Counted from the stretch's first letter, positions 12,741-62,398 are shown. The stretch is 64,000 nucleotides of DNA from Minisyncoccota bacterium (GCA_041658485.1 JBBAAE010000001.1:11889-75888), one strand, 5' to 3'. Translations and numbers: made by a program. The notes: a model not told the origin generated them from the sequence alone.

Positions 12741-12851
12741 GCTTTAGTGGCTAGGGTTTAGCGTTTAGGGGAGAACGAATTGAAAAATCCTGATCCCTAC
12801 GAATCCGACGAAGCATCGTCTAAACCCTGACCACTAAACGCTAGCCCCTAG
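12741..12851. repeat. Pair of inverted G-triplet repeat units (GGGTTTAGCGTTTAGGG family) flanking a 47-nt spacer
   Basis: Left unit ctttagtggctagggtttagcgtttagggg (12741-12770); right unit ctaaaccctgaccactaaacgctagcccctagc (12819-12851). Lies between the TraD-like stop and the ndk start. Confidence 0.6.
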
Positions 12852-15733
12852 CTCTTCTGGTTCTCTCGCATCTGATTATACTTCTGGTGAATATCAGCCT
12901 CCACAGCTTCGCGGGCTCGACCGTAGCGTTGATACGAAATCTGTTTCAATGCATCAATGTTCAAGAAGTCGCCAGGGGTAAACGGGATAGTCTCAATAGT
13001 AAAACCAGGGGTAGGCTTTCCTCCAGCAAGGAGCTTTAAATATGAATGGAAGTTGTCAATTTTTAGGAAGTCGGAAACCTCAAAGTTTGGAAATTGTTTC
13101 GCAATATACTCAGCATCATCGGGACCTACACGAAACACTGCCATCGTACCAACGTTACCAAAGACCGCTTCTTTAATTTTTGGAAGGAGCTGAGAAACAT
13201 ACTGGTGCGCCATAGTCATAGAGAGACGGAATTTTCGTGCTTCTGAGAGAATTGTTGAAATAGTATCGGTCGTGATGTTCTGGAACTCGTCAATGTAGAG
13301 ATAGAAGTTTGGAGGATTCAAATGCAAATACTCAGTACGTGCAAGTGCAGTCATCATTATCTTTCCAACAATCACAAGTCCAATCAAGTTTGCATTTACG
13401 TCCCCCAGTCGGCCTTTGGACAAGTTCACAAGAAGAATCTTCTTGTTGTCCATAATATCCTTGAAATTAAAGGCCGATCGTTGCTGACCTATGATGGGGC
13501 GCATAATTTCATTTGCGATGAAGATATCGAATTTTGAGGTGATGTACGGAACCACGTTACGCAAATCTCCTTCTCCCCGCACATTTTCTGCAATGTCTTC
13601 CCAGAAGTGCGTTACCACGGGATTTTTACAGCGCGACAATTTCAATGCGCGGAACTCATCGTCAGCGAGTACTCGCGAAATATCCATGAGTGTCGAGCCA
13701 GTATCAGGATCTTCCAAAACAAGCATCGTGGCATTACGAAAATACTGCTCGAAAATAGGGCCGAACGCTTCTGGTACATCACCATATAATTTCTTGAAAA
13801 TCTTAAACATCTCGTCCACCACGAATGTTTTTTGTTCAGGGAAGCGTGGATCATACTCAAGCATATTGAGCCCCATTGGCCTTGCGGTATATGCAGGATC
13901 AAAATAAATGAGGTCGTCAATGCGATCTTTAGGAATACGGGAAAGAATCTCCAATACATCCACACCGTGTGGGTCAATAAAACACACCCCTTCCCCATTC
14001 TCAATGTCCTGAATAATCATATTCTTCAGGAAGTTCGTCTTACCAGTACCCGTTTGTCCAATGGTATACATGTGGCGCAGGCGATCATCTGGAGTGAAAT
14101 GAATTGGCGTTGCAATATTTGAGTAACGATTAATGCCGATGACAATGCCTTTCTCAGGAAGCCCTGGTGGTGCAGGAGCAAGCTTAGCGCTTGCAGTTTT
14201 GGCTTCACGAGATGCTGTACCTCCTGCAATAGTGAGATGAAAAATAGTTGAGAGCTCTGCCAAATTCATCGGCATGAGTGGAATCTTATGCATCAAAGGT
14301 GTTGGCGCAGCCTTGCGTGTCCATTCAAGCCACAGCTGATAGAAAAATCCTTCGTGTGCTTGACGGTCAAACATACGGAAAATGAACAAGCGGAGAAACT
14401 CCCGCAACTCCTTTCTACCTTTTATATGCTTAAAACGAAGGCGATTCGCTTTTGCATCTTCATACTGCCCAAAGGTATTTTCAAGTTCCGTCAAAATTGC
14501 CATTGCCCTCTCTTTGGTGCGAGCAGAGGCAACAATGCGTAAATTCACTCCCACAATGACACTCTTGAGCTTTTTTGACACTGCGTCAGCCGCAAAAGAA
14601 TCAATATTCTTACTATCATCCTTCTTTTTTTCTTCAGAGCTTTCCAAAAAACTAGTGAAGCCTTTGTTCAATCCCTGAAAAAATCGACGCATTGGTGAGT
14701 AATGCTCCATGTACATATTTTTTCGAAATATGTCATTCGCAGAACCCTTACCTTTATTAAGTTCGTCTAAAACATAGCGGATACGCTTAGAGTGATAGTC
14801 TCCTGCTGGTGCAACGGTAATTTGAAGCGCAGCCCCTTCACCTTCTTTAGTGATTTTTGAAAGTGCTGCGAGCGTCACATTCATAGGGTCGTGACTAAAC
14901 TCTTCTGATGTCTTTAAAGGAATTGGTGGCGGGCGCTGATAGTAAGCAGACGCTGCAACAGTCACACCAAATTGGTTAAAAAGATTGTAGTCATCTTTTT
15001 TTTCAACAATACGTGCGCGAGGAAACATGGCAAAAATCTGCTTTTCAAACGTTTCCCGTTTTGCTCGAGGAACTGACAAATAAAAGACCGCTTCCTCTTT
15101 AGTGTGCGAAACAGCAATTTCCATTGTGAAATGCTGAAGATGAATCTTTTTGCGCTTGTGCCAATCCTTCAGGAAAATTGTATCGGGGAGAGCAACAAAA
15201 GGAATCATGCTCAAATAAAACTGCTCCATCTGCATGCAAACATCCTTAAGAGACCCCCCTGGTTTCCCTGGCGCAGCTTCAGGTACGGCTATATCCAAGA
15301 GAACAAAATCAAGAGCTACAGCGAGTGGGTCATTAGCACTCAGCCCTGGGATTGGATGACCAGCTGTCCGGTATTGCACAAGCAGGCGATGGAAATCATC
15401 TTCAAGGTGGGGATTATCAATGCGATCGAGCTCCCTCATGACAGCCTTGAATCCTTGGGTATGCAAAATACCCAACAACTCCTCCATGTCTTTGTCGTTC
15501 GAGTCAGGTGTAAGTTCAAGAATGATGCCTTGCTTCTGCTCTTGCTCTACCCCCTCTGGTGCCTCCGAAAGTGTAGGGAGAACAGACGCTTCGACAGGTA
15601 AGGCCGGATCCCCTCGATGTCCCCTTCCCCCTCCACCCGAACGCGCGGTCTCACGCAACTTCGTCAGTTGATGCTCAGGCGAAAGTTTCGCTGCTTTTGT
15701 ATCAATTCCTTTATTAGGATTAAATCCTGGCAT
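12848..15733 (-). CDS. TraD/VirD4/TrwB-like (FtsK-HerA superfamily) P-loop ATPase with a large N-terminal domain of unknown function
   Basis: 961 aa. Walker A YTIGQTGTGKTNFLKNM, Walker B LYIDEFQNI, then ARKFRLSMTMAHQYVSQL typical of type IV secretion coupling / DNA-translocation ATPases. The N-terminal ~500 aa have no recognisable similarity and no N-terminal transmembrane helices. Confidence 0.6.
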   Translation of the reverse strand: MPGFNPNKGIDTKAAKLSPEHQLTKLRETARSGGGGRGHRGDPALPVEASVLPTLSEAPEGVEQEQKQGIILELTPDSNDKDMEELLGILHTQGFKAVMRELDRIDNPHLEDDFHRLLVQYRTAGHPIPGLSANDPLAVALDFVLLDIAVPEAAPGKPGGSLKDVCMQMEQFYLSMIPFVALPDTIFLKDWHKRKKIHLQHFTMEIAVSHTKEEAVFYLSVPRAKRETFEKQIFAMFPRARIVEKKDDYNLFNQFGVTVAASAYYQRPPPIPLKTSEEFSHDPMNVTLAALSKITKEGEGAALQITVAPAGDYHSKRIRYVLDELNKGKGSANDIFRKNMYMEHYSPMRRFFQGLNKGFTSFLESSEEKKKDDSKNIDSFAADAVSKKLKSVIVGVNLRIVASARTKERAMAILTELENTFGQYEDAKANRLRFKHIKGRKELREFLRLFIFRMFDRQAHEGFFYQLWLEWTRKAAPTPLMHKIPLMPMNLAELSTIFHLTIAGGTASREAKTASAKLAPAPPGLPEKGIVIGINRYSNIATPIHFTPDDRLRHMYTIGQTGTGKTNFLKNMIIQDIENGEGVCFIDPHGVDVLEILSRIPKDRIDDLIYFDPAYTARPMGLNMLEYDPRFPEQKTFVVDEMFKIFKKLYGDVPEAFGPIFEQYFRNATMLVLEDPDTGSTLMDISRVLADDEFRALKLSRCKNPVVTHFWEDIAENVRGEGDLRNVVPYITSKFDIFIANEIMRPIIGQQRSAFNFKDIMDNKKILLVNLSKGRLGDVNANLIGLVIVGKIMMTALARTEYLHLNPPNFYLYIDEFQNITTDTISTILSEARKFRLSMTMAHQYVSQLLPKIKEAVFGNVGTMAVFRVGPDDAEYIAKQFPNFEVSDFLKIDNFHSYLKLLAGGKPTPGFTIETIPFTPGDFLNIDALKQISYQRYGRAREAVEADIHQKYNQMRENQKS

Positions 15734-16485: not shown

Positions 16486-16493
16486 ATAGAGAA

Positions 16494-18837: not shown

Positions 18838-18864
18838 ATTTTTGCTATTTAGAAGCTACACACA

Positions 18865-18883
18865 AACGCTAGCCACTAAACCT
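18865..18883. repeat. G-triplet intergenic repeat unit (AAACGCTAGCCACTAAACC)
   Basis: Lies in the 50-nt spacer between the secY stop and the gmk start. Confidence 0.5.
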
Positions 18884-18887
18884 TGTC

Positions 18888-20159: not shown

Positions 20160-20171
20160 GGTAACCAGTGT

Positions 20172-20681
20172 TTAGCTTTTAGCTTTTAGCGAAGAGACAG
20201 CTTTCTTAGAAGGCATAACCTTCTTTGAAACAGGGGCGCGGACAGCACCTCCTGCTTTCTCAATTGTAGCTCGTGCTACTTCAGAGATGAAAACATCCTC
20301 AAAAGAGAGCTTCACGGTGAGTTCACCTCGCGCAAGAACTTTTATTGGAGGAACCTTACCGGAAATGCGTCGTACAACTCCAGCCTTTACGAGTGCGATA
20401 GGAGTAACGATATCCCCTGCCTTAAATTGTCTTGAGAGCGTATCGAAGTTCACCGTAGCAAATCTAACGCGAGGGACTGCGGTTCGAGAACGATTTCTAC
20501 CATACCCACGGCGTTTTGGAATTTTCTTGATTATATCTCGCCATTCTGGACGAAATTTTGCGCCAGCGCGTGATTTCTGACCTTTAGCACCACGACCAGA
20601 TGTCTTACCTCGTTTTCCTCCACGACCAACACGACGGCTTGTCGCATTACTCTTTGTTCGTGCCAATGTGTGAAGTTCCAT
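20172..20681 (-). CDS. rplO: 50S ribosomal protein L15
   Basis: RRVGRGGKRGKTSGRGAKGQKSRAG. Confidence 0.9.
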   Translation of the reverse strand: MELHTLARTKSNATSRRVGRGGKRGKTSGRGAKGQKSRAGAKFRPEWRDIIKKIPKRRGYGRNRSRTAVPRVRFATVNFDTLSRQFKAGDIVTPIALVKAGVVRRISGKVPPIKVLARGELTVKLSFEDVFISEVARATIEKAGGAVRAPVSKKVMPSKKAVSSLKAKS

Positions 20682-24732: not shown

Positions 24733-24785
24733 ATTGTTTTTGTTTTTGTGTTTTTCTTCTCTCCTCCCTAAAAGCTAAAAGCTTC

Positions 24786-25166
24786 TTATACTACTTCTGG
24801 CGCAAGAGAGCCAATCTTCTGATATCCCAAATCGACGATTTCGCGAGGGATTGGACCGAAGACACGATTTGCCTTTGGTTCAAAAGGATCTTTTGCATTC
24901 TTTGAAAGAATCACCACAGCATTATCATCGAAGCGAATATAGGAACCATCAACACGACGGAATGTCTTTCTTTGTCGAACTACTACCGCAGTCAATACAT
25001 CTTTTTTCTTAACCATTTTTCGTGGTTCAGCAGACTGCACAGAAAGCACTACTCTGTCGCCAATCTGAGCAATAGTTTTTTTGGAACCACCAAGCACTTT
25101 GAAAATGCGTCCAACCTTTCCGCCGGTGTTATCTGCAATGATGACGAGTGAGCGATCTTGAATCAT
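24786..25166 (-). CDS. rplN: 50S ribosomal protein L14
   Basis: MIQDRSLVIIADNTGGKVGRIFKVLGG. Confidence 0.92.
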   Translation of the reverse strand: MIQDRSLVIIADNTGGKVGRIFKVLGGSKKTIAQIGDRVVLSVQSAEPRKMVKKKDVLTAVVVRQRKTFRRVDGSYIRFDDNAVVILSKNAKDPFEPKANRVFGPIPREIVDLGYQKIGSLAPEVV

Positions 25167-27538: not shown

Positions 27539-27566
27539 TTTGTGCAACCTCCGGAGGTTGCACAAA
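27539..27566. repeat. Perfect 28-nt palindrome TTTGTGCAACCTCCGGAGGTTGCACAAA
   Basis: Read in sequence, 21 nt beyond the stop of the Y1 transposase gene. It recurs at 28301-28334. Confidence 0.85.
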
Positions 27567-27587: not shown

Positions 27588-28286
27588 TTACAAAATAATA
27601 ATGCCTTCAAGCTCCTCAGCTAAAAGTTTTTTGTTGGTTGTTTTAACAAAATCAGCGTAATTACTTTTTGCTGTTATGGCAAACTGCCCTGTAATGATTT
27701 CGGGCACTATGAGTCCTCCCCATCGGTTTGCATCAGTAAAATCTTGGAGCGACGACCAAGGATATTCAAATTCCTTTCCTGACCATTCTCGTGTATCACG
27801 AGGGTTTCTATGAATGTAGGCGGATGTGTAGAGAAGTTGAGAGTCTGTCTTTACATGCACCGCTTTATACGGACCCTGAAATACATGCCCAGTGGCGTCA
27901 TATTTAACATTATAATATTTTGTATATCCATCAGACACACGTTGCATATAGCGTGCGATTCCACCTTCAATAGTTTCTTTGACCAGTAAGTGAAAATGGT
28001 TGGACATCAGACAAAAACAAACCACTTCTACAAAACGACTCTCGATAATGGACTCGATATCTTCGTTAGGAACAGAAAAACCAATATCCGGAACAAAACT
28101 TTCCGTAATGCGATGTATATTTTTAAACTCGTGCGGGGATTGGAGAAACAGCACATTAAAAAGGAATCGCCGCCAATCGTTTTTTTCTTTAAAAACCGTT
28201 TGTCGGTGAGCTCCGCGATTAAAAATATGGTAGTACTCCCCTGGAGCAATTCCTTCTCGCGATTTTAGTAATACTTTAGGCATCAA
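27588..28286 (-). CDS. IS200/IS605-family (REP-associated tyrosine transposase, RAYT-like) Y1 transposase
   Basis: 232 aa. EYYHIFNRGAHRQTVF opening block, CLMSNHFHLLVKE (HuH motif), GHVFQGPYKAVHV with the catalytic Tyr region. This is the typical Y1_Tnp / RAYT layout. Confidence 0.75.
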   Translation of the reverse strand: MMPKVLLKSREGIAPGEYYHIFNRGAHRQTVFKEKNDWRRFLFNVLFLQSPHEFKNIHRITESFVPDIGFSVPNEDIESIIESRFVEVVCFCLMSNHFHLLVKETIEGGIARYMQRVSDGYTKYYNVKYDATGHVFQGPYKAVHVKTDSQLLYTSAYIHRNPRDTREWSGKEFEYPWSSLQDFTDANRWGGLIVPEIITGQFAITAKSNYADFVKTTNKKLLAEELEGIIIL

Positions 28287-28300: not shown

Positions 28301-28334
28301 CCCCTTGTGCAACCTCCGGAGGTTGCACAAGGGG
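28301..28334. repeat. Second copy of the palindrome, extended: CCCCTTGTGCAACCTCCGGAGGTTGCACAAGGGG
   Basis: Read in sequence, 15 nt upstream of the transposase start codon. It has the same 24-nt core as the copy at 27539-27566. Confidence 0.85.
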
Positions 28335-28360: not shown

Positions 28361-31300
28361 TTAAAACTCGTCGAAGCGCGGAGTAACACCTATGGTCACT
28401 GACTTTGAACTCGGAACCCCACCGGTCAAACAATTCATTGTGTATGTACTTTGTTGATTTATGATCACAGATTGTGCGCCTGAAAAAGCTGTTGAAGAAA
28501 GCCCAGGGCCAGAAATCGAACAAGAGTCAGGAGTGCCCACCACTCCCCATGACACCGTTGCAGGGTCGCCTTGGCGAACAGTAACGGCTGGGCTAATGCT
28601 GAGAGCAATATCAGCAGGGTTTACAGTAACTGTTGCACTTGAAGATGCACTTCTCGTACCGTTTGTACAAGTGATGCCGTAGGTTGTAGTAACTGGAGGG
28701 GAAACAGTAACCGAACCAACGGTTGCACTCCCTGTTGGGAAGTTAGTTCCTGTACAAGAAGTGGCGTAAGAAGATGTCCAGTCAATGCGTGGAGAAGTTA
28801 CACCTTTAATTATTACGTTTGGTGTAACAGTAATGAGCACCGTGGGAGTGTTCTGTATAGTTCCCGCTGCACATGTCGCAGTAACTGACCCTGCACCTGA
28901 GGTCACAATAACTGAAGCCGATTTCGTACCGGCAGTAGCGTATGTTTTCGAGACAGTTACACCTGTGCCGAGAAGTCCGTCAGTGCCACTCCAGACATAT
29001 GTATATGAACCTACACCACCAGAAGGTGTGACGGTCCACGTTAATGAATCTCCCACATACCCAGTACTTGGTGATGGAGAACATGATGCTGTCACTGCAC
29101 CCGGGTTTACAGTTAATGATGTCCATACACTACAGTTATCAAGCTCATTGGATTCGTTCACTTCATTGAGTGGTGTATCAGCACAAAAACGCATCTGGTA
29201 CGAACCCGGTGAAGGAAATGTGTAGCTTCCTGTTTGAGTACCACTGCCCCCAGCTACAATCGATATTCGACTTAAAGCAATTTTAATTGACGTATTGGCT
29301 TCCGCAAAATTAATAAAGAAACTAAAGATGCGACTCCAAATAGAGTCTGACTTGGTGAGATAATTATTGAGACAAGCACTGTCCGAAGTGAGACACACAT
29401 ACATCCTTGAACCAAAAACTGGAGTCGCTGCCCCACCACGATTAGTAACGCCAGCGGTAAATGTGGTATTTACTCCCGCAGTTACACTGGCAGGAGAGAG
29501 AGACCCTGTAGTTAAATCCGCCAAAGAAACACCAACTACAACAGAGTTTGAACAACTCGCCGTAACTGATGCATTCGATGCAGTTGCCATACCTGCCAAA
29601 TAATTATGTCTCGTTGTACTACCGCTCGTTGAGGTTTTCGAGGCAAGAGAAGCATTCGAATATGCTTCGTAGCGATAGTAGGTATTAACAGGTTGCCCAG
29701 CTGAATTCAAAGTCTCTCGCACATCAACACTACAGCAACCGCCTGCTGGGGTTATACCTGCGCACACTCCTGCCATAGAGCTAGTGTTGAGAGTAAATCC
29801 AACACCATCCTCGGTAGTACCATAACTACCTACTTTCGTACCTCCAGAACAATGCTTTTCCCCTTGAAGCGTAACAGAAGTTGCGCCGGAAGGGCTAGTG
29901 ATAGTGATTGAGGCTGTTTTTGTACCGACAGTTGTATATGTTTTTGAAATAGATGCAACGGCACCCGAGAGACTATCAGTACCACTCCATGAATACGTGT
30001 ATGAACCGGCTCCACCCCATGCAGAGGCAGTCCAAGTTACAGGACTACCGGTGTATACACTTGTTGGCGATACTGAACATGACCCAGAAAGAGCGCCGGA
30101 GGAGGTTGAATTTACTTGAACATTTGCGGTAGCGAAAGCGGTCTGAGGAGTCACGGCAGGAGAGGCGCCGACACATGAATAGATATCAGTATTGATGCTG
30201 CATGCACTGATGGTGTTCACCTTACACGTTGGGATACTACAAGTCTTTCCTGTTGGATTCGAAGGGCAAGTTGGTACGCTTGAATATGCCTTGTTTGGAT
30301 CTGTGAGCGGGCAAGCAAAATCACTTATATCAGACTCTGAATATTGCCATGTACCTGACGATACTGCGCTAGCTCCTGTACAGGTGATGGAGTAGTTTGT
30401 ACTAGCACTTAACGCTCCGGTAGAAATAGAGCCTGATGTATTCCCGCCAGTTTCAAATCCACTACCAACACAAGAAACTGCATTAGTTGAGGACCATGTG
30501 AGAGTAGCGGAAGATCCAGAATTCAAACTTGTTGGAGTTGCAGAGAGTGAAACCGTTGGCGAAGGGATTGAACTTACAGTGACCGTTTGGGATGCCGCCG
30601 CAGAACCGCCAGCGCCAGTACATGAGACAAGATAACTTGTTGTTTGCGATGGGATAACTGTTACAGAGCCTGCAGTTGCCGACGCTGTCGAAAAATTGGT
30701 TCCTGTACAGGAAGTTGCGTTCGTTGAACTCCAAGTAATAACTGACGAGGCACCTGCGACAAGAGAGGTTGGATTTGCAGAGAGCGTTGCCGTTGGCGCT
30801 GCAGGAAGATTCACGGTCACCGTCCGAGATGCAGACGCAGAACCACCAGCGCCAGTACATGAAACGAGGTAACTGGTTGTTTGTGACGGGACCACCGTTA
30901 CGGAACCTGCAGTTGCTGATGCTGTCGAAAAGTTAGTGCCCGTGCAGGATGTTGCGTTAGTTGAACTCCAAGTTATTACCGATGATGCACCTAATATAAA
31001 GGAGGTTGGATTTGCAGAGAGTGAGGCAGTTGGGGCAACAACAGGAGCACTGACAGTCACCGTTGCGGAAGAAGAAATTGTCTGGGCACCATCGGTACAG
31101 GTAATTAAGTAGGCTACTGAAGAAGATGGTGAGACAATAAGCGAGCCTGAAGTAGCGCCACTAGTTGAAAAATTAGTGCCCGTACATGAGGTTACATAGT
31201 CCGAACTCCATGTTAAAAGAGACGAACCTCCACTAGTTATGGAAGCAGGTGTCGCAATAATTCCAACATACGGCGCTGTTGGCTCTTCGATACAACCCTC

Positions 31301-31597
31301 ATCCATGTCGCCAACAGTTGCGGTCTGATAGGCACTTTGCACTGTATAACTATCTCCACCATACACTGCATAAAAGGCCGCGGCACCTCCACTGCCCGGG
31401 GGGAATGGATTAGTTACTACAGTGTAGGAGTATTCCCATATCGAACCACTACACCCTCCGACACCACCTCCTCCACCATCCATGTTTGGTGCAGCGTATA
31501 CCGATTGAGGAATTATACTGAGTACCGCAACTACAAAGACAGCAACCACAAAAAAGCTTTTAAAAGTGCGGGCAACAAACTGGCGGAAGGCTATCAT
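28361..31597 (-). CDS. Giant secreted Thr/Ser-rich repeat-domain protein (surface or S-layer-like candidate)
   Basis: 1078 aa. Signal peptide MIAFRQFVARTFKSFFVVAVFVVAVLSIIPQSVYA, followed by poly-Gly. At least six copies of a ~75-90-aa module (xTPTSLxxGxSSxxTWSSTNATSCTGTNFSTxxATxGSxTVxPSQTTSYxVxCTGAGGS). A Cys-rich central module (GTWQYSESDISDFACP...CKVNT...YSC). PKD-like GSYTYSWSGTD modules. Many N-x-S/T sequons. C-terminal tail ...PRFDEF. Confidence 0.8.
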   Translation of the reverse strand: MIAFRQFVARTFKSFFVVAVFVVAVLSIIPQSVYAAPNMDGGGGGVGGCSGSIWEYSYTVVTNPFPPGSGGAAAFYAVYGGDSYTVQSAYQTATVGDMDEGCIEEPTAPYVGIIATPASITSGGSSLLTWSSDYVTSCTGTNFSTSGATSGSLIVSPSSSVAYLITCTDGAQTISSSATVTVSAPVVAPTASLSANPTSFILGASSVITWSSTNATSCTGTNFSTASATAGSVTVVPSQTTSYLVSCTGAGGSASASRTVTVNLPAAPTATLSANPTSLVAGASSVITWSSTNATSCTGTNFSTASATAGSVTVIPSQTTSYLVSCTGAGGSAAASQTVTVSSIPSPTVSLSATPTSLNSGSSATLTWSSTNAVSCVGSGFETGGNTSGSISTGALSASTNYSITCTGASAVSSGTWQYSESDISDFACPLTDPNKAYSSVPTCPSNPTGKTCSIPTCKVNTISACSINTDIYSCVGASPAVTPQTAFATANVQVNSTSSGALSGSCSVSPTSVYTGSPVTWTASAWGGAGSYTYSWSGTDSLSGAVASISKTYTTVGTKTASITITSPSGATSVTLQGEKHCSGGTKVGSYGTTEDGVGFTLNTSSMAGVCAGITPAGGCCSVDVRETLNSAGQPVNTYYRYEAYSNASLASKTSTSGSTTRHNYLAGMATASNASVTASCSNSVVVGVSLADLTTGSLSPASVTAGVNTTFTAGVTNRGGAATPVFGSRMYVCLTSDSACLNNYLTKSDSIWSRIFSFFINFAEANTSIKIALSRISIVAGGSGTQTGSYTFPSPGSYQMRFCADTPLNEVNESNELDNCSVWTSLTVNPGAVTASCSPSPSTGYVGDSLTWTVTPSGGVGSYTYVWSGTDGLLGTGVTVSKTYATAGTKSASVIVTSGAGSVTATCAAGTIQNTPTVLITVTPNVIIKGVTSPRIDWTSSYATSCTGTNFPTGSATVGSVTVSPPVTTTYGITCTNGTRSASSSATVTVNPADIALSISPAVTVRQGDPATVSWGVVGTPDSCSISGPGLSSTAFSGAQSVIINQQSTYTMNCLTGGVPSSKSVTIGVTPRFDEF
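30590..31130. repeat. Near-identical in-frame tandem DNA repeats (~270 bp, about 90% identity) inside the giant gene
   Basis: Two successive ~90-aa modules (...SLSANPTSFILGASSVITWSSTNATSCTGTNFSTASATAGSVTVVPSQTTSYLVSCTGAGGSASASRTVTV / ...TLSANPTSLVAGASSVITWSSTNATSCTGTNFSTASATAGSVTVIPSQTTSYLVSCTGAGGSAAASQTVTV) encoded by nearly identical DNA. Confidence 0.6.
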
Positions 31598-31654
31598 TCC
31601 ATCTATTGTACAGGGAATTCATACTTGCTGTTAAGAGAAATTTGTGAGGGGTGG

Positions 31655-31688
31655 AGTAATAAAAACTCTCCAGGTAATGGGGAGTTTT
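31655..31688. terminator. Bidirectional rho-independent terminator between the two giant genes
   Basis: aaaaACTCTCCaggtaatGGGGAGTttttttatttc. Confidence 0.5.
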
Positions 31689-31847
31689 TTATTTCAGCTC
31701 CCTGATTTGCGTTGCTTGCCCCATCATTAGAATTTGGCGTTACTCCTTATAGTGAAGTATTAGACGTTTTAGACACCGACCACACGGTCGTGAATCTGTG
31801 ATTTGCAGTATCCCGTACATCGAAACAATCTATTACGCACCTGTGTA

Positions 31848-34325
31848 TCAAAACTCTTCGTATGCTGGTAGCAGTTTGACTGTTATTGATTTTGAAGTGG
31901 TCCCTCCACCTGTCGTACATGAGAACGTATAGGTACTTTCTTGACCTATAATGACACTTTGCGAACCTGAAAAAGAACCTGATGAGAGCCCTGGGCCACT
32001 CATGAGACACGAATCAGGACTTCCTGATACTGACCAGTTAATAATTACCGAATCATTACGACGAACTGAAGTGTTTGGGGATGCAGTAAGCACTAGATCC
32101 GCTACATATACTGTAACGACCGCGCTCGAGTAAGCACTTTTTGATGCGTTCGTGCACGTAAGGTTATAGGTAGTGGTGTTAGTTGGTGTTACCGATAGAG
32201 CGCCAGACGTTTGGCCTCCTGTTGCAAAATTAGTGCTTGTGCACGATGTTGCGTTTGTCGAAGACCACGTAAGTTGCGACGCATTTTGCCCGCGAATAAT
32301 TGAGCTCGGGGTCGCACTTAAAAGTGCCGTAGGAGAAGCTGAGATTGAGGTTGAATTGCTACATGCTTGAGTAACAGACTGTGTGCCTGAAGCAACAATC
32401 ACAGAGCCGGCTTTGGTTCCCACTGTTGTGTATTGCTTCACAACCGATTGCGTTGTTCCTGATAAACCATCTGTACCACTCCACGAATACGTATAGGAAC
32501 CGGTGCCCCCCGCAGGAGACGCTGTCCACGTTATGTTGTCATTTGTATACCCCGAGGTGGGAGCAACAGCGCAGGAGGTATTAAGTGATGGAATTGCGAC
32601 GGTCACAGCAGTCCACGCACCACAATTATTTGTTTCATTGGACTCGTTGATAACGCCGGAACCCGTAGATGAGTTTTTGTCAGCACATGCACGCACGTAC
32701 CACGTACCTGCCGAAGGGAACGCGTACGAAAAAGTAGTTGCCTCAGAACTATTCGTCGAAATGTTTGGTGACATACCAGTGCCAATATCTTCTGTATTCG
32801 CACCACTTGAAGATGTAGCTCGCTGAAAAAGATTGATGAACTCTCCTCCTGTCGCAGGGTTACCTGCATTCGTGATTGTTGCGGAAAATGTTTTTGCGAC
32901 GTTAGTAATTGCGGAGGTTGGTGAAATGGCGCTCGCACTAAGATCGGACAACACTACACTCACTGCAACAGAATTTGAACAACTCACTCCCGCCGAGTTA
33001 CCGCCCGAAGTAATTGTCACTGCACCACTCTTCGTACCAGTGGTTGAGTATGTTTTGGATACCGATGCACCTGTGCCAGAAAGACTATCGGTACCACTCC
33101 ACGAATACGTATACGAACCGGTGCCACCCGATGCAGATGCAATCCAAGTAACCATCTCTTCCGTATACACACTTGTGGGAGACACTGCACACGATGCCGT
33201 AAGGGGCGTACTTGAAACAGTAACGTACGCACTGCCCGATACACTTGGCGGAGGCGATGTTACTTGGCACGAATACAAGTCCGTAGTGATACCACATCCG
33301 GGACCGATTGTGTTTACTTTACACGTTGAAGGAGGTGAGGTGCATGATTTACCTTGAGGACTCGCTGGGCAATCTGGTACAGAACTATAAACATTGTTGC
33401 TGGATGATACAGGGCACGATAGATCCGAGTAATCACTTTGATAGTATTGCCATGTTCCAGTGCCACTCCCCGAAGAACCCGTGCATGTAAGCGTGTAATT
33501 TGTGCTAGCGTTTGGCGTAATGGTGATCGAGCCCGATGTGGCGCCAGCGGTATCAAATTGAGTGCTCGAGCAATACGAAGTATTGCTCGAAGTCCACGAA
33601 AGCGTTGTACTCCCTCCCGCGGTAACCGAGGAGGGAGACGCGGTCAACAATATACTTGGCGACGAACTTGGGGGCGTTACCGTAAGAGTCGCCGAGCCTT
33701 GCGCTGTACCTCCAGCACCAGTACAACTTACTGAATACGTTGTAGTTTGCGACGGTGAAACAGAAACTGTACCAGAGAGTGCTCCGCCCGTACTGAATCC
33801 CGTTCCCGTACATGATGTTGCATTTGTGGAACTCCACGTGAGTGCAGATGAGTACCCTGCCGAAATGGACGTGGGCGCTAGAGATATTGACGTGGTTGGT
33901 GCGGGAGAAGCGTTGATATAGGTAAGTGCATATGTCTTAGTTGCACTTGCCGTGCCGGCGCCACTATACATTTTATAGAGTATGTTCCAACTGCCGCTGT
34001 TCGACGTTAATTCTCCTTGAATACAGTACGAGCCTGGAGTGTTATAGCCACTTGGGATGAGAGTGCCATCTATAAACCCCCACGCGAGAATGCTCCACGA
34101 CGGTGCAGACGGTGGCGACAAGTCCCCCTCACCACCGAGATTCGCCACAAACGCCCCCGTACATTTTGTATTTGCACTGGTAACGGCGCCAGAAGAAGTT
34201 GGTGGATTGGGGTAGGCGTACGCCTCCGCAAAAGAGACAGAAACGCTTCCCACAAAAACGGCCGCGATTAAAAAACTTCCGAATGTTTTCAAAACAAAAG
34301 ATGTAATCGGTGTGAGCGAGTTCAT
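31848..34325 (-). CDS. Giant secreted Thr/Ser-rich repeat-domain protein, paralog of 28361-31597
   Basis: 825 aa. Signal peptide ...VSVSFAEA. Same module types as its neighbour (SLAPTSISAGYSSALTWSSTNATSCTGTGFSTGG...; central GTWQYYQSDYSDLSCP...CKVNTIG...YSC; GSYTYSWSGTDSLSGT). C-terminal tail ...LLPAYEEF. Confidence 0.8.
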   Translation of the reverse strand: MNSLTPITSFVLKTFGSFLIAAVFVGSVSVSFAEAYAYPNPPTSSGAVTSANTKCTGAFVANLGGEGDLSPPSAPSWSILAWGFIDGTLIPSGYNTPGSYCIQGELTSNSGSWNILYKMYSGAGTASATKTYALTYINASPAPTTSISLAPTSISAGYSSALTWSSTNATSCTGTGFSTGGALSGTVSVSPSQTTTYSVSCTGAGGTAQGSATLTVTPPSSSPSILLTASPSSVTAGGSTTLSWTSSNTSYCSSTQFDTAGATSGSITITPNASTNYTLTCTGSSGSGTGTWQYYQSDYSDLSCPVSSSNNVYSSVPDCPASPQGKSCTSPPSTCKVNTIGPGCGITTDLYSCQVTSPPPSVSGSAYVTVSSTPLTASCAVSPTSVYTEEMVTWIASASGGTGSYTYSWSGTDSLSGTGASVSKTYSTTGTKSGAVTITSGGNSAGVSCSNSVAVSVVLSDLSASAISPTSAITNVAKTFSATITNAGNPATGGEFINLFQRATSSSGANTEDIGTGMSPNISTNSSEATTFSYAFPSAGTWYVRACADKNSSTGSGVINESNETNNCGAWTAVTVAIPSLNTSCAVAPTSGYTNDNITWTASPAGGTGSYTYSWSGTDGLSGTTQSVVKQYTTVGTKAGSVIVASGTQSVTQACSNSTSISASPTALLSATPSSIIRGQNASQLTWSSTNATSCTSTNFATGGQTSGALSVTPTNTTTYNLTCTNASKSAYSSAVVTVYVADLVLTASPNTSVRRNDSVIINWSVSGSPDSCLMSGPGLSSGSFSGSQSVIIGQESTYTFSCTTGGGTTSKSITVKLLPAYEEF

Positions 34326-34336
34326 ATCATTACATG

Positions 34337-44332: not shown

Positions 44333-44346
44333 ATTTAGCTAGCCAG

Positions 44347-44404
44347 TAGGGTATAGGGTATAGGGTAACAGCATTAAAATCTAGTGGCTAAACCCTAGTG
44401 GCTA
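44347..44404. repeat. (TAGGGTA)x3 tandem plus a CTAGTGGCTAAACCCTAGTGGCTA unit of the G-triplet repeat family
   Basis: Divergent spacer between the site-2 protease and the TrmH-family methyltransferase. Confidence 0.55.
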
Positions 44405-47301: not shown

Positions 47302-47351
47302 ACTGACAATGATATAATGCCACCGAGGCTAGTAGCCATTCAGAAGATATT

Positions 47352-47380
47352 CACCTAAACGCTAACCACTACCCCCCTAG
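47352..47380. repeat. G-triplet family repeat unit (CACCTAAACGCTAACCACTACCCCCCTAG)
   Basis: Divergent spacer between the ComEC-MBL gene and sod. Confidence 0.5.
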
Positions 47381-47385
47381 TTCAT

Positions 47386-47961: not shown

Positions 47962-49324
47962 ACCGGAACACCAACAAGCCTACAGTTGCATACAAAAACC
48001 CGAGCACCATTAAAAGTGGCCACATCCACTCTCGTGGAATAGGGAGCGATGCAAACGGCAATGAGCCGAAAAATGTTGCTATAGAAATAATATAGGAAAG
48101 AATTCCATAGCCGAGAATACTTAAGGGGAAAGCGAATATCGGCGAGAGAAGTGCAGTAATCGATGCGAAAAATCCAACAAACATTGCAATCGGAACTGCA
48201 GGAAGAACCAAAACATTAGCGGGCAAAAAAACTAATGACACCGCTCCGATAGAAAATATAAGAAGTGGTAACACGGTCACTTGTGTTGCCAGAGTCGTCG
48301 ACACAATTTCCCGAAACGGGAAATATTTAAAGTCAGGAATGAACTTCAAACGACTCGCGATTGTTTCAGAGAAAAGTATAAGTCCGAGCGTTGCAAGAAT
48401 GGAGAGTTGGAATGAAAGGTCATAGAGAACGATGTACGGATTCCACAAAGCCATCACCGCCGCCGCAATTGCGAGCATGCGGAGTGCTACTTTTGGTCGA
48501 TGCAACACAGTAGCAACCATCATTAAGAGCGCCATGATGAGGGCTCTGATTGTAGTCTCGGAGCCACCGGTCATGATCGCAAAGCCAATAACAAAAAGTG
48601 CAGAGAAGCCGTATGCAACAGTTCGTGGAAATATTTTTAAAAATATAAATAAAATCCATTGAATAACCAGCGCGACATTGTATCCAGAGAGAACAATAAT
48701 ATGTATCACACCGGCACTTCGAAAGAATCCTGTTATTTTTTCACCTAACGATTGTTTTTCACCAAGAAGCAAGCCAGCAAGAAGTGCAGATTGAGGTTCT
48801 GGCACTGCGCGCTCAATTCCTTTAATAAATAAATGTTTAACAGATAGAAGCCCTGCAACAATTACATTTCCCTCCCCAGTTCTGAGTTTCGTAACCTGCG
48901 GGAATGAAATTGTGTAGAAAATACTATGCGCACGAAGATACTTTGGATAATTAAATGTCCGTCCTGAGTCAGTTTCAAATGGTTCAGGCTTTTTAAGTTT
49001 TCCTTTTACACTAACGCGATCCCCATAGACGGCCGTCTCAAACGAATCCGCAAAGAGAAGTACTCTCACTTTTTCTGCAACAGAAACACCATTCAACTTT
49101 TCCACTTTCACAACAAGATGTGTGGTGCGTTCACGCTGGTCGGGGTCTCTCACCACTACACCCTCGACAACGACACTAGTATCAACTGAATCTTCAAAAA
49201 TCGAAGGAAATTTTTCAGGCACAAGGACTGAATACGCCCCTGCACCAATAACAACCGCGATACAAAGTAGCGGTACGAAATTTCGAATTAAAAAGTCCCT
49301 TAAAAATTCTGTATGATATATCAT
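47915..49324 (-). CDS. comEC: ComEC/Rec2 DNA-uptake channel protein (N-terminal DUF4131 plus competence domain only)
   Basis: 469 aa. N-terminal transmembrane and OB-like region, then a polytopic domain with LLAGLLLGEKQSLGEKITGFFRSAGVIHIIVLSGYNVALV. It lacks the MBL domain, which is encoded separately at 46465-47301. Confidence 0.75.
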   Translation of the reverse strand: MIYHTEFLRDFLIRNFVPLLCIAVVIGAGAYSVLVPEKFPSIFEDSVDTSVVVEGVVVRDPDQRERTTHLVVKVEKLNGVSVAEKVRVLLFADSFETAVYGDRVSVKGKLKKPEPFETDSGRTFNYPKYLRAHSIFYTISFPQVTKLRTGEGNVIVAGLLSVKHLFIKGIERAVPEPQSALLAGLLLGEKQSLGEKITGFFRSAGVIHIIVLSGYNVALVIQWILFIFLKIFPRTVAYGFSALFVIGFAIMTGGSETTIRALIMALLMMVATVLHRPKVALRMLAIAAAVMALWNPYIVLYDLSFQLSILATLGLILFSETIASRLKFIPDFKYFPFREIVSTTLATQVTVLPLLIFSIGAVSLVFLPANVLVLPAVPIAMFVGFFASITALLSPIFAFPLSILGYGILSYIISIATFFGSLPFASLPIPREWMWPLLMVLGFLYATVGLLVFRFRKEIALGSKHHSNS

Positions 49325-49364
49325 ACAGAATTTTTAAGGGAGGAATATAAAGACATACTGGGAA

Positions 49365-52570: not shown

Positions 52571-52681
52571 TACAAGCTATGGTAGCATTTTGGAAAGAAA
52601 GCTTTCAGGTTCCAGGTGTCAGCTTTCAGCTTTGAATTAAAAGAAGCTGGAACCTAAAAGCTGGCAGCTAACAACTAACTT

Positions 52682-54970: not shown

Positions 54971-54995
54971 CGAGAAATCGTAACACGATTGAGGA

Positions 54996-55059
54996 GGGTT
55001 TAGTGGTTAGCGTTTAGGGGTTAGTTTTCTCTAAACACTGCCCACTAAACGCTAAACCC
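54996..55059. repeat. Inverted pair of G-triplet repeat units separated by 6 nt
   Basis: gggtttagtggttagcgtttaggggttag / ctaaacactgcccactaaacgctaaaccc, between the tpiA start and the downstream gene stop. Confidence 0.6.
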
Positions 55060-55064
55060 TTTTG

Positions 55065-56246: not shown

Positions 56247-56270
56247 AAACCCCCGTGCACTTCTTATGCT

Positions 56271-56306
56271 CCCCCCTAAACTCTCCCCCCTAAACGCTAA
56301 ACCCTG
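56271..56306. repeat. G-triplet family repeat unit (CCCCCCTAAACTCTCCCCCCTAAACGCTAAACCCTG)
   Basis: Spacer between the prepilin gene stop and the 55065 gene. Confidence 0.5.
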
Positions 56307-56311
56307 TTCAT

Positions 56312-56962: not shown

Positions 56963-57347
56963 CTTTCACTACCTTATAATCATTCCCACCTACGCCATTC
57001 GCTCCATCATCCTTATATGTCACAACCGTTCGAAGTGTGTACGGAATATTATTAATAAGTCGTGATTCAGTAGATACTAAAATTCCTGAAGGAGTACCAC
57101 TAACAGTCCCAACGCTCGCATACGGAAGTCCTCTCACATACTCGACAGTACTCGCAATAAGCGCACTCGCATTTGTGCGCGACGCAATACTTTGCACTAA
57201 TGTAGCGGATGCCGCATATGCACCAAAAAAGCCTAAAAAGATTACGAGCATAAGGGAGACGGCAACAATCACTTCAATGAGTGTCATTCCCCGAGAAGTT
57301 TTCTCCCGTCTTTCCGCACACCTGACACCTGACACCTGACACCTCAT
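56895..57347 (-). CDS. Prepilin-type N-terminal cleavage/methylation domain protein (type IV pilin)
   Basis: Leader ...KTSRG followed by MTLIEVIVAVSLMLVIFLGFFGAY, a canonical G | (F/M)TLIE class III signal. The leader codons contain a (GGTGTCA)x3 tandem. Confidence 0.65.
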   Translation of the reverse strand: MRCQVSGVRCAERREKTSRGMTLIEVIVAVSLMLVIFLGFFGAYAASATLVQSIASRTNASALIASTVEYVRGLPYASVGTVSGTPSGILVSTESRLINNIPYTLRTVVTYKDDGANGVGGNDYKVVKVEASWNIRGFSHSMSAVTYVAP

Positions 57348-60363: not shown

Positions 60364-60391
60364 TCTTTGGTAAGAATAACATTGCGAAGCA

Positions 60392-60426
60392 GGGTTTAGC
60401 GTTTAGGGTATAGGGTTTAGTGGAGG
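60392..60426. repeat. G-triplet family repeat (GGGTTTAGCGTTTAGGGTATAGGGTTTAGTGG)
   Basis: About 30 nt upstream of the pilB start, in a divergent spacer. Confidence 0.55.
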
Positions 60427-60980: not shown

Positions 60981-61054
60981 GCGAGCAAGATTCGTACCGC
61001 TGAACTATTGACACACCTACCCCTCCACGCTATACTTTCGAAGTCAGTTTCCCT

Positions 61055-61090
61055 CCACGGGTCCGCGCAACGCGGGCCTGTTTTTTTACC
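61055..61090 (+). terminator. Rho-independent terminator
   Basis: GGGTCCGCGcaaCGCGGGCCtgttttttt. Confidence 0.5.
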
Positions 61091-61119
61091 AAAATGGAGA
61101 GAAACTCAATCTTTCTTAT

Positions 61120-61153
61120 CCCTAAACACTAGCCACTAAACGCTAACCCCTAA
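61120..61153. repeat. G-triplet family repeat unit (CCCTAAACACTAGCCACTAAACGCTAACCCCTAA)
   Basis: Ends 6 nt before the nusA start codon. Confidence 0.55.
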
Positions 61154-61159
61154 TTAAAT

Positions 61160-62368
61160 ATGTTCGACCTAAAAACAATAAATCTAGTCATCGATCAGCT
61201 CTCTGAAGAGCGTGGTATCCCCCGTGACAAAATGATAGAAGCCATTGAAGGTGCTGTTGCAACTGCCTATAAGCGTGAGTACGGTAAACGAGATCAAATC
61301 GTTCGTGCACATTTTGATATTTCAACTGGCGGTGTCGATTTCTATCAAGTAAAAATGGTTGTTGCGCCTGAAGAAGTTCGCATGGACGGCGACGAGTCTC
61401 CAGTAGAAGAAGGAGACGATCGTCCCCACTACAATGAAGAACGATTCCTTTTCCTTGAAGACGCAAAGAGAATCAAGAGAGATGTTGCTGTTGGTGACGA
61501 GCTCATATTCCCACTCGAAAAGAAGACCGATTTCGGACGCATTGCAGCGCAAACTGCAAAGCAGGTCATTATGCAGAAAATCCGTGAAGCAGAACGTGCT
61601 TCAGTTGTTGAAGAGTACGGCGGTAAAGAAGGGGACATCGTTCACGGTATCGTGCAACGCATTGAGCGTGGCAACTTGTATGTCGATTTGGGTCGTGCAA
61701 CAGGCATTATGCCGTACCACGAACAAATTCCAGGAGAGCGATATCGCGCTGGTGAGCGTGTGCGTGCATATCTCTTTTCAGTGGAGGAAGGAGTACGTGG
61801 CGTATTCTTGCGACTGTCCCGTGCACATCCAAAATTCTTGGAAAAACTTTTCGAACTTGAAGTTCCTGAAATCGCAAGCGGTGCCGTTGTTATAAAAGCA
61901 ATTGCCCGTGAAGCTGGTGGTCGCTCTAAAGTTGCTGTGCACGCAACTGATTCACGCATCGACCCAGTTGGCGCACTCGTCGGTCAGAGAGGTGTTCGTG
62001 TTTCAACTGTCATGAGTGAACTTGGCGGTGAGCGCATCGATATCATCGAGTGGTCAGAAGAAATAAAACAATTTATTGAAGACGCACTCTCCCCTGCCCA
62101 AATTCTTTCAATCGAACTTGATGAAGAAACACACCGTGCAGTTGCTGAAGTCTCTGAGGATCAGCAATCTCTTGCTATTGGTCGTGGCGGTCAAAACGTA
62201 CGCCTCGCCGCAAAACTAACTGGTTGGTCAATCGACATCCGCCCAGTAGGAGGCGCCGTAGTTGCTGAAACTGATGAAAACGTAGCAAAGGCGGAGGAAG
62301 AAACTGAAACCAACAAAGAAAAATCTGATACTGTAGAAGAAGCTGGCGACGCAGAAGTCAAAAACTAA
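61160..62368 (+). CDS. nusA: Transcription termination/antitermination factor NusA
   Basis: N-terminal domain, S1 and KH1/KH2 blocks (IVHGIVQRIERGNLYVDLG, VKAIAREAGGRSKVAV, LAIGRGGQNVRLAAKLTGWSIDI), acidic C-terminus. Confidence 0.9.
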   Translation: MFDLKTINLVIDQLSEERGIPRDKMIEAIEGAVATAYKREYGKRDQIVRAHFDISTGGVDFYQVKMVVAPEEVRMDGDESPVEEGDDRPHYNEERFLFLEDAKRIKRDVAVGDELIFPLEKKTDFGRIAAQTAKQVIMQKIREAERASVVEEYGGKEGDIVHGIVQRIERGNLYVDLGRATGIMPYHEQIPGERYRAGERVRAYLFSVEEGVRGVFLRLSRAHPKFLEKLFELEVPEIASGAVVIKAIAREAGGRSKVAVHATDSRIDPVGALVGQRGVRVSTVMSELGGERIDIIEWSEEIKQFIEDALSPAQILSIELDEETHRAVAEVSEDQQSLAIGRGGQNVRLAAKLTGWSIDIRPVGGAVVAETDENVAKAEEETETNKEKSDTVEEAGDAEVKN

Positions 62369-62398
62369 ACCCTTTACACTAACCCCTAAACGCTAACG
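62365..62398. repeat. G-triplet family repeat unit filling the nusA-ppa spacer
   Basis: CTAAACCCTTTACACTAACCCCTAAACGCTAACG. Confidence 0.55.

Follow-up and report, generated by a model that had tools for sequence, protein, structure and literature searches.

Heptamer repeat arrays in the intergenic spacers of a Candidatus Paceibacterota genome: slippage-type turnover, gene-relative polarity, and local conservation

The intergenic spacers of a 64,000-nucleotide (nt) stretch of Minisyncoccota DNA (GCA_041658485.1 JBBAAE010000001.1:11889-75888; hereafter the window) contain short G-rich repeats that were described in an earlier note as a dispersed family built from a few shared words and related to repetitive extragenic palindromic (REP) sequences and bacterial interspersed mosaic elements. 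The repeats are arrays of degenerate heptamers that belong to the known class of intergenic heptanucleotide repeats, which includes the short tandemly repeated repetitive (STRR) sequences, the GGGAATC repeats of Xanthomonas, and the TAACTGA repeats of the Beggiatoaceae; the unit sequence differs from those described. The identification as heptamer arrays can be held with high confidence together with the rejection of the REP, G-quadruplex, and terminator readings. The explanation favored here, with modest assurance, is that these arrays are remodelled by slippage and kept, with the G-poor strand in the mRNA sense, as translation leaders.

The organization of the repeats becomes clear once they are read in a register of seven. 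The words reported in the earlier note are present in all 11 intervals that it listed, and every listed array lies outside the long open reading frames (ORFs), in agreement with the intergenic location that had been claimed. The count of at least 12 units corresponds to a list of 11 intervals, or to 12 arrays if 44347-44404 is split. Because the copies resolve into 7-nt head-to-tail units, the words are overlapping views of one register; the copies do share their words, as proposed, but as tandem arrays and not as free word combinations. Each copy of this G-family consists of 2-5 degenerate heptamers placed head to tail, and on the G-rich strand the units follow the pattern G[GCT]G[GT]N[TC]A. 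The units include GGGTTTA, GCGTTTA, GTGGYTA (e.g., GTGGCTA), GGGGTTA, GGGTATA, and GTGTTTA, and the array at 60392, for example, reads GGGTTTA GCGTTTA GGGTATA GGGTTTA GTGG. Conserved positions within the units are G1, G3, and the T-A-G junction, while one position is freely variable; the steadiest part of the register is the junction between TTA and the G that follows. The repeats are more frequent than composition predicts. The 11-mer TTAGCGTTTAG has eight exact copies in the window and 12 copies when one mismatch is allowed, compared with 0.95 +/- 0.89 in dinucleotide shuffles, none of which (0/100) reaches 12. Runs of two or more G[GCT]G[GT]N[TC]A units number 10 in the window versus 0.8 in shuffles.

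The heptamer register extends beyond the G-family. Tandem Repeats Finder reports a period of 7 or 14 in 17 of its 30 rows for the window, and lag-autocorrelation finds 12 regions at lag 7, compared with 0.2 in shuffles and no more than three at any of the other lags (4 to 12). Of these 12 regions, eight to ten are intergenic, while intergenic DNA makes up 12% of the window. A scan of 612 kb in 83 non-redundant stretches, made up of the window and Paceibacterota loci, gives 43 intergenic regions at lag 7 versus 4-15 at other lags. Period 7 is the sole over-represented short period in the intergenic DNA of the window and these relatives. The window holds at least three heptamer vocabularies, of which the G-family is one, and seven period-7 arrays (at 9266, 11562, 20163, 24766, 52600, 52645, and 57318) of AGCT, CAGGTGT, and CACTAA types were missed in the earlier note. 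All 19 arrays lie in spacers or overlap at most a stop codon or a gene end (Table 1). Rfam returns nothing at gathering score across the whole window, with chance-level matches only in two repeat-rich spacers.

The position and strand of the arrays relative to genes have been probed as well, and the bias that the earlier note had proposed to look for is present. In 11 cases in the window, read by hand, the mRNA-sense strand of the array is the A/C-rich one and stops 1-30 nt short of a start codon (ndk, the M50-peptidase-like gene, sod, tpiA, pilB, nusA, ppa, rplT, secY, recJ, and the HIT gene). The A/C-rich words in sense are CTAAACG, CTAAACC, and CTAGCCA, along with CTGAAAG, CTAAAAG, and CACTAAT from the other vocabularies. 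In six cases it is the G/T-rich strand that is in sense, starting 0-5 nt past a stop codon (the TraD-like gene, secY, the 416-aa gene, the pilin-like gene, the 126-aa ORF at 24786-25166, and pilC). Among the relatives, after exclusion of the window and of duplicates, arrays located no more than 40 nt from a start codon carry the A/C-rich rather than the G/T-rich strand in sense by 13:3 (p = 0.02). As computed, indirect evidence, when the arrays are inverted in silico, the predicted unpaired probability of the region from -15 to +15 drops in 11 of 11 genes, with the mean falling from 0.56 to 0.42 (Wilcoxon p = 0.001) and the leader becoming more stable (-15.3 to -20.0 kcal/mol). The leaders in question belong to a genome in which a Shine-Dalgarno (SD)-like tetramer (GGAG, GAGG, or AGGA at -20 to -4) precedes only 3 of the 69 ORFs of the window.

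Three other properties were considered in connection with this polarity and rejected. Stops in all three frames are more frequent in the arrays than in control leaders (23%) but equally so on the two strands (10/22 versus 13/22), so they do not explain the orientation, and the CAGGTGT and CAGCTTT arrays carry no stops. Replacement of the SD sequence was dropped as a discriminating property because SD-like sites are so scarce in any case. Finally, a replication-strand polarity, such as that of FtsK-orienting polar sequences (KOPS) or Chi-like sites, is rejected because array orientation tracks genes and not the replication strand.

Insight into the history of the arrays comes from five stretches of four relatives with approximately 70-92% nucleotide identity (L122; L123 and L207, from the same genome; L205; L206), and the locus L124 was also used in the comparison. 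The array stretch in the nusA leader is identical to L122 at 49 of 50 positions and the array in the nusA-ppa spacer at 33 of 33 (82/83 together), while four-fold sites in nusA, ppa, pilB, and pilC (n = 708) are only 61% identical to L122. This comparison shows purifying selection on the nusA and ppa arrays. The A/C arm upstream of ndk is likewise retained in L205 and L207. Other arrays have turned over. Past the pilC stop, the first unit (AGGTGT) is kept and is followed by (CAGGTGT)3 in the window versus (CAGCTTT)3 in L122 and L123; this concerted change of every unit in the array points to slippage. In the secY-gmk spacer, the array of L205 is set apart by a unit-scale indel and that of L206 by a single substitution, and L207 has an AGCT-type array there instead. 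The pilB leader contains GGTTTCA/GGTGTCA units in L122 and the G-family in the more distant L123, and the nusA-ppa spacer of L123 contains CTGTAAA-type units. L122 lacks the 86-nt recJ/HIT pair and has a spacer of 25 nt at that position; L206 has lost the TraD-ndk pair through a deletion, and neither L205 nor L206 has the 24766 array. Unit-scale differences separate relatives at 88-92% identity, and most G-family arrays are imperfect and lie beside housekeeping genes. The G-family vocabulary is limited to the closest relatives and is essentially absent from 557 kb of other Paceibacterota. The earlier interpretation is supported in so far as the family is dispersed, lineage-specific, and confined to intergenic spacers.

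Three pairs of arrays in inverted orientation occur among the 19 arrays, with arms that differ in unit order. The two hairpin-capable pairs recognized previously (12741/12819 and 54996/55031) do exist and fold better than shuffled sequences (54994-55061: -30 kcal/mol, z = -3.5; 12741-12851: -48.5 kcal/mol, z = -2.8). The third (52600/52645, AGCT-type) is weaker (z = -1.35). The mRNA order of the paired spacers is stop, G/U arm, loop, A/C arm, start; this order is observed at 12741-12851 and 54994-55061 in the window and in L171 and L124 among the relatives. Single arrays have no self-complementarity.

The same words are found well outside this lineage. A scan of GTDB genomes (596 Gb) for the 15-mer GGGTTTAGCGTTTAG gave at least 120 loci among the matches listed. 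This number is not itself evidence because approximately 1,100 chance matches are expected; only loci at which the array extends to at least three units were counted, the chance of each extra unit being approximately 0.003. Such arrays are present at 52 loci among the matches listed (Bacteroidota 25, Patescibacteria 11, Proteobacteria 9, other 7), and the words also occur in Campylobacterota and further phyla. Cultured isolates among the listed loci include Fibrella, Siphonobacter, Galbibacter, and Limnohabitans. In the other phyla, 65 arrays are intergenic and 12 lie in crude ORFs. The phage collection contains no match to the array sequences and the plasmid collection a single record, from Sulfurovum; neither result points to a mobile vector as the cause of the cross-phylum distribution. 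The Sulfurovum record (L208; Sulfurovum mangrovi NZ_CP087125.1) has 10 matching places; at 3995-4050 it carries (GCGTTTA)x8, which begins on the very next base behind the TAA stop of a glmS-like ORF missing from the plasmid gene table.

The favored explanation combines local turnover with a role in translation. The G/T-rich "TAG" vocabulary would be part of a general period-7 repeat system in the spacers of this genome, in which slipped-strand expansion and contraction make and remodel the arrays locally, and the mixed-unit arrays would be older and stabilised. A slippage origin of the arrays is probable. The arrays are predicted to be transcribed within 5' leaders and intercistronic spacers, where they appear to persist almost only when the A/C-rich strand (CUAAACG, CUAAACC) is in the mRNA directly upstream of start codons, with the complementary G/U-rich strand usually right past stop codons. 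An A/C-rich leader may keep the start region single-stranded and provide an unstructured ribosome landing pad of the S1/standby type; the G-poor orientation would be kept because SD-less start regions thereby stay open for S1-type or standby initiation. Where both orientations occur in one spacer, an intercistronic stem-loop would extend from the upstream stop to the downstream start, and a ribosome that finishes translation 0-5 nt ahead of the G/U arm could open the stem and free the leader of the next gene. This translation-leader function is proposed tentatively.

Several observations weigh against this explanation. The array at 11562 violates the polarity rule, since its A-rich strand is in sense past the rimI stop. 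The presence of G/T-rich strands after stop codons is not significant in the relatives (7:9), and the polarity is weak in the other phyla (starts 13:10; nearer ORF boundary 5' of the G-rich strand in 34 versus 18). G-poor leaders are general in this genome, as the regions upstream of the window ORFs are A/T-rich with 17% G, and the orientation bias could therefore reflect tolerance alone and not a positive function. Several arrays have been lost or replaced in close relatives without obvious consequence, and the recurrence of the same words in distant phyla is left unexplained by slippage. That the arrays are transcribed, and that they affect translation at all, is inferred.

The main rival holds that the arrays are neutral slippage junk and that selection does no more than purge arrays in which the G-rich strand would fold up a start region. 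This proposal is on balance unlikely but has substance: between relatives that are 80-92% identical, arrays turn over fast, switch vocabulary, and are present in one genome but absent in another, the neighboring genes share no function, and published studies likewise found no role. The chief argument against it is the 82/83 identity of the nusA and ppa arrays set against 61% at neutral sites. Retention of the array with its A/C-rich strand in sense upstream of ndk also speaks against neutrality, as does the finding that several spacers always carry an array despite changed sequence. Sequence-level conservation of some arrays could also be expected if they were sites for a nucleic-acid-binding protein that reads the 7-nt register and defines a regulon, such as a cold-shock-domain protein, S1, a HutP-like RNA binder, or some DNA binder. 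The conserved unit positions flanking a variable one and the occurrence of the same words in distant phyla fit this idea, which has already been proposed for TAACTGA (PMC4679880) and for the Nostoc heptamers. It is nonetheless improbable, given that orthologous spacers swap GGGTTTA for GGTTTCA/GGTGTCA, AGCTGTC, or CTGTAAA, and such swaps count against a sequence-specific binder because it would not tolerate them. At least three vocabularies coexist in one genome, and no candidate protein has been identified.

The identities proposed in the earlier note fare less well. The window does contain a Y1_Tnp ORF of the IS200-like or REP-associated tyrosine transposase (RAYT)-like type (27588-28286, minus strand, 232 aa; Pfam 35 bits), the only one found by motif scan and Pfam, and mobile REP- or REPIN-like elements spread by such an enzyme would account for the three spacers with short-loop inverted pairs, for one whole pair being an indel relative to L122, and for a small GTAG-containing hairpin element beside the arrays. 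The units, however, are direct heptamer repeats without an internal palindrome, most arrays are singlets, including the best conserved (nusA and ppa), the units of an array change together as in slippage, and pairs have been lost in L206 and in L122. The Y1 gene is bracketed by two identical perfect 26-nt palindromes, TTGTGCAACCTCCGGAGGTTGCACAA (27541-27566 and 28306-28333), which differ from the array sequence, as had been noted earlier; these are the only two copies in the window, and no heptamer array is near the gene. It lies inside the ribosomal-protein cluster next to rpsS, a position that is kept in L205, L206, and L207, whose arrays differ, which suggests a vertically inherited, domesticated single-copy gene. 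A tblastn search with Y1 against 207 loci gave two matches, neither linked to arrays, so that homologues of the proposed partner do not travel with the arrays. The REP/RAYT origin is thus highly unlikely. An equally poor prospect is that the arrays are G-quadruplex-forming regulatory repeats, as proposed for the GGGAATC/GGGGAYT heptamers. The G-rich strand has GGG runs, the gene-relative polarity is the same as that of the published quadruplex repeats, and about four units are common, but a pattern search and G4Hunter find 0 of 12 arrays with four G3 tracts and loops of at most 7 nt. The number of G3 tracts per array is 0-3, only one array has four G2 tracts, and 11 of 12 arrays score below 1.2 with G4Hunter (ten at 0.4-1.2; the mixed-orientation array at -0.08), with one reaching 1.5. 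Many units are GCG or GTG, and the co-existing AGCT and CACTAA vocabularies lack G runs yet behave alike. A role as transcription terminators, also suggested before, or as 3'-end stabilising hairpins finds some support in the two pairs that fold significantly directly past stop codons. This identity is very unlikely: no array has a U-tract, none is among the 31 terminator-like sites of a consensus scan that does recover classical terminators at 61057-61081, 62930-62969, and 49296-49341, most arrays are single and unable to fold, and many lie in operon junctions or 3-6 nt before start codons. The least likely of the identities considered, to the point of being scarcely credible, is that of DNA uptake signals for the ComEC/type IV pilus competence machinery. 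ComEC-like, PilB, PilC, and pilin genes are encoded in the window, the lineage-specific vocabularies resemble uptake-sequence dialects, and some copies are inverted pairs after genes. Known DNA uptake sequences and uptake signal sequences, however, occur at approximately one copy per kb, coding DNA included, and independently of gene orientation, whereas the arrays occur at approximately one per 5 kb (about 12-19 in 64 kb) with none in coding DNA, and their orientation follows gene direction, which is needless for a double-stranded DNA uptake signal. The same words in unrelated phyla and the several vocabularies in one genome also argue against this role. A likeness to integron attC sites (GTTRRRY), judged by eye, was rejected as well; the arrays flank core housekeeping genes, and the core site is not matched by most units.

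Table 1. Heptamer arrays of the window and copies of the two-hairpin element. Positions refer to the window unless another stretch is named.
Position	Strand	Type and units	Placement
9266..9296	-	(NCACTAA)x3 on + strand	A/C-rich in sense; ends 1-2 nt before rplT ATG (9298)
11562..11606	+	CAGCTTA-type x5-6	A-rich strand in sense; 10 nt past rimI stop
12741..12772	+	G-family; GCTTTA GTGGCTA GGGTTTA GCGTTTA GGGG	3' arm of inverted pair; A/C-rich strand in ndk sense; ends 24 nt before ndk ATG (12717)
12781..12814	-	Two-hairpin element, ~30 nt (ACGATGCTTCGTCGGATTCGTAGGGATCA; GCGACGCTTCGTCGGATCCGTAGGGATCA, contains GTAG)	In pair loop, directly 3' of G/T-rich array
12819..12851	-	G-family; CTA GGGGCTA GCGTTTA GTGGTCA GGGTTTA G	5' arm of pair; G/T-rich strand in sense; overlaps TAG stop of 961-aa TraD-like gene
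18863..18885	-	G-family; GGTTTA GTGGCTA GCGTTT	G/T-rich strand in sense; 4 nt past secY stop, 28 nt ahead of gmk ATG
20163..20192	+	(TTTAGCT)x3	A/C-rich (CTAAAAG) in secY sense; ends 3 nt before ATG; overlaps L15 gene end
24766..24785	-	(AGCTTTT)x2.3	In sense, directly past stop of 126-aa ORF (24786-25166; homologue in L205-L207 is ribosomal protein L14); then GGGAGGAG
44345..44368	+	(TAGGGTA)x3	A/C-rich strand in M50-peptidase-like gene sense; 15 nt before ATG (44332)
44380..44404	.	Mixed-orientation units CTAGTGG CTAAACC CTAGTGG CTA	Abuts rlmB start
47350..47382	-	G-family	A/C-rich strand in sod sense; ends 6 nt before ATG (47386); past TATAAT-like boxes, hence in the sod 5' leader
52600..52636	+	AGCTTTC-type x5	Pair arm 1; A-rich strand in recJ sense; 30 nt before ATG
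52645..52675	-	GAAGCTG GAACCTA AAAGCTG GCAGCTA on + strand	Inverted partner of 52600..52636; A-rich in HIT-gene sense
54994..55026	+	G-family; GGGTTTA GTGGTTA GCGTTTA GGGGTTA	3' arm of pair; A/C-rich strand in tpiA sense; 25 nt before ATG (54970)
55029..55061	-	G-family; GGGTTTA GCGTTTA GTGGGCA GTGTTTA	5' arm, pair loop 6 nt; begins 5 nt past stop of 416-aa gene
56269..56308	-	G-family	G/T-rich in sense; 5 nt past pilin-like gene stop, ~24 nt before next start
57318..57344	-	(CAGGTGT)x3.9	In sense; begins 3 nt past pilC stop
60390..60426	+	G-family	A/C-rich strand in pilB sense; 28 nt before ATG (60363)
61118..61155	-	G-family	A/C-rich strand in nusA sense; ends 6 nt before ATG; between leader terminator (61057-61081) and nusA start codon
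62363..62400	-	G-family	Fills nusA-ppa spacer; A/C-rich in sense; ends 3 nt before ppa ATG
L123 5450-5480		Two-hairpin element	
L207 3440-3470		Two-hairpin element	
L207 18255-18283		Two-hairpin element	
L006 1155-1177		Two-hairpin element	
L006 4448-4470		Two-hairpin element	

Two small elements accompany the arrays. The two-hairpin element is found six times, each time directly 3' of the YAG end of a G/T-rich array and at non-orthologous sites, which suggests either a very small element that targets the ends of arrays for insertion or a composite module of array and hairpin. An element of approximately 70 nt (GGCTCCCGATTTGTCCAAGAG..AAGCGATTG..TACAAAT.GCAGTCCCCTT.GGGG) is conserved between L122 (~3785-3850) and L124 (~9455-9520); it occurs in different spacers of two genomes, is flanked by heptamer arrays in both, and has chance-level Rfam matches only. 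The region upstream of nusA (61008-61090) has a near-consensus promoter (TTGACA-17-TATACT, 11/12) and, approximately 20 nt beyond it, a strong hairpin of the terminator type together with a T-run (61057-61081). The short nusA leader GUCAGUUUCCCUCCACGGGUCCGCG... is conserved in L122, L123, L124, L125, and L133 and resembles a transcription attenuator, possibly serving NusA autoregulation. Directly after ppa, a perfect 40-nt palindrome with an 18-bp stem (62930-62969) scores as a bidirectional terminator.

The host is a member of Candidatus Paceibacterota, as its NusA is identical to a protein annotated from a "Candidatus Paceibacterota bacterium" metagenome-assembled genome; its nearest relatives are Patescibacteria/Parcubacteria. 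The neighboring genes were checked against NCBIfam and Pfam, with mixed results for the names used in the earlier note. The name secY is upheld by a match above the curated cutoff, and nusA by its Pfam domains and by the name that the source gives to the identical protein. Matches for gmk, tpiA, and ndk fall just below the cutoff, with tiny E-values for gmk and tpiA, while ppa is well under its cutoffs (best 141 versus 200 bits) and sod is likewise well below. Further neighbors are pilB, a ComEC-like gene, and a TraD-like gene.

Other features of the window are recorded here in their own right. A run of minus-strand ORFs at 340-7481 resembles, by eye and from translations only, a membrane-bound [NiFe] hydrogenase or complex-I-like module, with a NuoD-like large subunit, NuoL/M/N-like antiporter subunits, a NuoH-like protein, and a NuoB-like small subunit; such a module is unexpected for a small Patescibacteria genome. 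Within the S10/spc ribosomal-protein cluster, an insertion between rplB (35075-35938) and the rpsS-side part (28361-34999) holds genes for two PKD/CARDB-domain proteins of very large size (1078 and 825 aa) as well as an ORF of 220 aa, an arrangement shared with L205 and L206. Upstream of the RNase J/beta-CASP gene is a non-coding stretch of approximately 250 nt (11305-11560) with long-range complementarity between GTCACTGACGGAGTATTAACC and GGTTAATACTCCGTCACTAAC. Over 160 nt its identity to L205 reaches 96.9%, compared with 82% for the flanking gene, and it matches Rfam families only at chance level, making it a candidate structured RNA or leader.

A bolder view of the arrays is that heptad leaders act positively, as a signal for translation or regulation that is read by its sequence and takes the place of SD pairing in low-SD lineages (Patescibacteria, Bacteroidota, Cyanobacteria, and some Beggiatoaceae). 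This view is speculative and improbable. If true, a conserved single-strand binder (candidates are S1 or a cold-shock-domain protein) would read the 7-nt register, which would explain both the recurrence of GGGTTTA/GCGTTTA (CUAAACC/CUAAACG in mRNA) in unrelated phyla and the frozen nusA and ppa arrays beside 39% neutral divergence. The paired arrays would then be translation-coupling switches, in which the ribosome, on reaching the upstream stop codon, unwinds the G/U-rich arm and so exposes the A/C-rich landing pad of the next gene. As the same words occur in cultured isolates of other phyla, experiments are possible there. In practical terms, the arrays mark gene boundaries and 5' leaders in SD-less genomes and should not be annotated as REP/RAYT elements or as G-quadruplexes.

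Heptamer repeats have been known since the cyanobacterial STRR sequences and have been re-described in Xanthomonas, Nostoc, and the Beggiatoaceae. The closest parallel is offered by the intergenic heptamers GGGAATC of Xanthomonas and GGGGA(C/T)T of Nostoc PCC 7120, the latter being of the STRR type (Rehm et al. 2015, PMC4692102). Their G-rich strand occurs in antisense orientation in the 50 bp that precede ORFs, or in sense orientation in the 50 bp that follow stop codons, with overlap of the stop in some cases; a role was looked for and none was found. The arrays described here are also tandem 7-nt units with a G-rich strand, present as two to few units with approximately four being common. 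They share the strong non-coding bias, an identical gene-relative polarity, inverted copies able to form stem-loops, no link to insertion sequences, and extensive variation in length and sequence between related genomes. In contrast to the published repeats, they have another unit sequence and mix five or six units instead of repeating one, they lack the G tracts for canonical quadruplexes, non-G-rich heptamer vocabularies coexist with the G-family, and the host has a small, SD-poor Patescibacteria genome. A Nostoc preprint describes reporter effects of heptamer repeats with no mechanism.

The TAACTGA direct repeats of marine Beggiatoaceae, cyanobacteria, and some Bacteroidetes, which lie directly upstream of start codons mostly without an SD sequence, have been proposed to act in translation (MacGregor 2015, PMC4679880). 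The similarity to the present arrays is considerable: both are heptamer direct repeats (2-6 copies) with "split" sets of related 7-mers, both are mostly intergenic and face start codons, often ending one to a few nt upstream, and in both the downstream genes mostly lack an SD sequence and include ribosomal-protein genes, with a patchy distribution across phyla. Read in register, TAACTGA as CTGATAA resembles CTAAACG and CTGAAAG of the window. The arrays differ from TAACTGA in their unit, in the frequent post-stop class and inverted pairs, in the several vocabularies per genome, and in the direct evidence of purifying selection on two arrays along with slippage-type turnover.

More distant comparisons can be made with REP/REPIN elements and with contingency loci. 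REPs are palindromic, and their doublets are the conserved replicative unit, found near their RAYT (Bertels & Rainey 2011, PMC3116915). The arrays are similarly short, abundant, extragenic, and genome-specific, with some inverted hairpin doublets and a Y1 (RAYT-like) gene in the genome, but they are direct heptamer repeats and mostly singlets, and the Y1 gene has a different flanking palindrome. With contingency-locus simple sequence repeats the arrays share short tandem units, slippage-type gain and loss, and unit replacement between relatives; unlike them, the arrays are degenerate, lie beside housekeeping genes (nusA, ppa, secY, tpiA, ndk, and sod), and include two that are strongly conserved. 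The simple sequence repeats of contingency loci are perfect and are located in the promoters or reading frames of surface or restriction-modification genes.

Head-to-tail 7-nt units, restriction to non-coding DNA, and gene-relative polarity, which characterize the heptanucleotide class, are thus all found here, with a unit sequence unlike those of the described families (CCCCAGT/GGGGAYT, GGGAATC, and TAACTGA). A literature string search for the unit sequences found no paper, and no report of such repeats in Patescibacteria was found in the literature searched. New to the class are the Patescibacteria as a host group, the clear failure of the G-quadruplex explanation while the gene-relative polarity persists, and comparative evidence of two forces at once, slippage turnover and purifying selection on particular leader arrays. 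Within the known heptanucleotide class, these arrays are notable for their mixed units, for the vocabularies that coexist with them, for the phylum of their host, and for turnover occurring side by side with strong local conservation.

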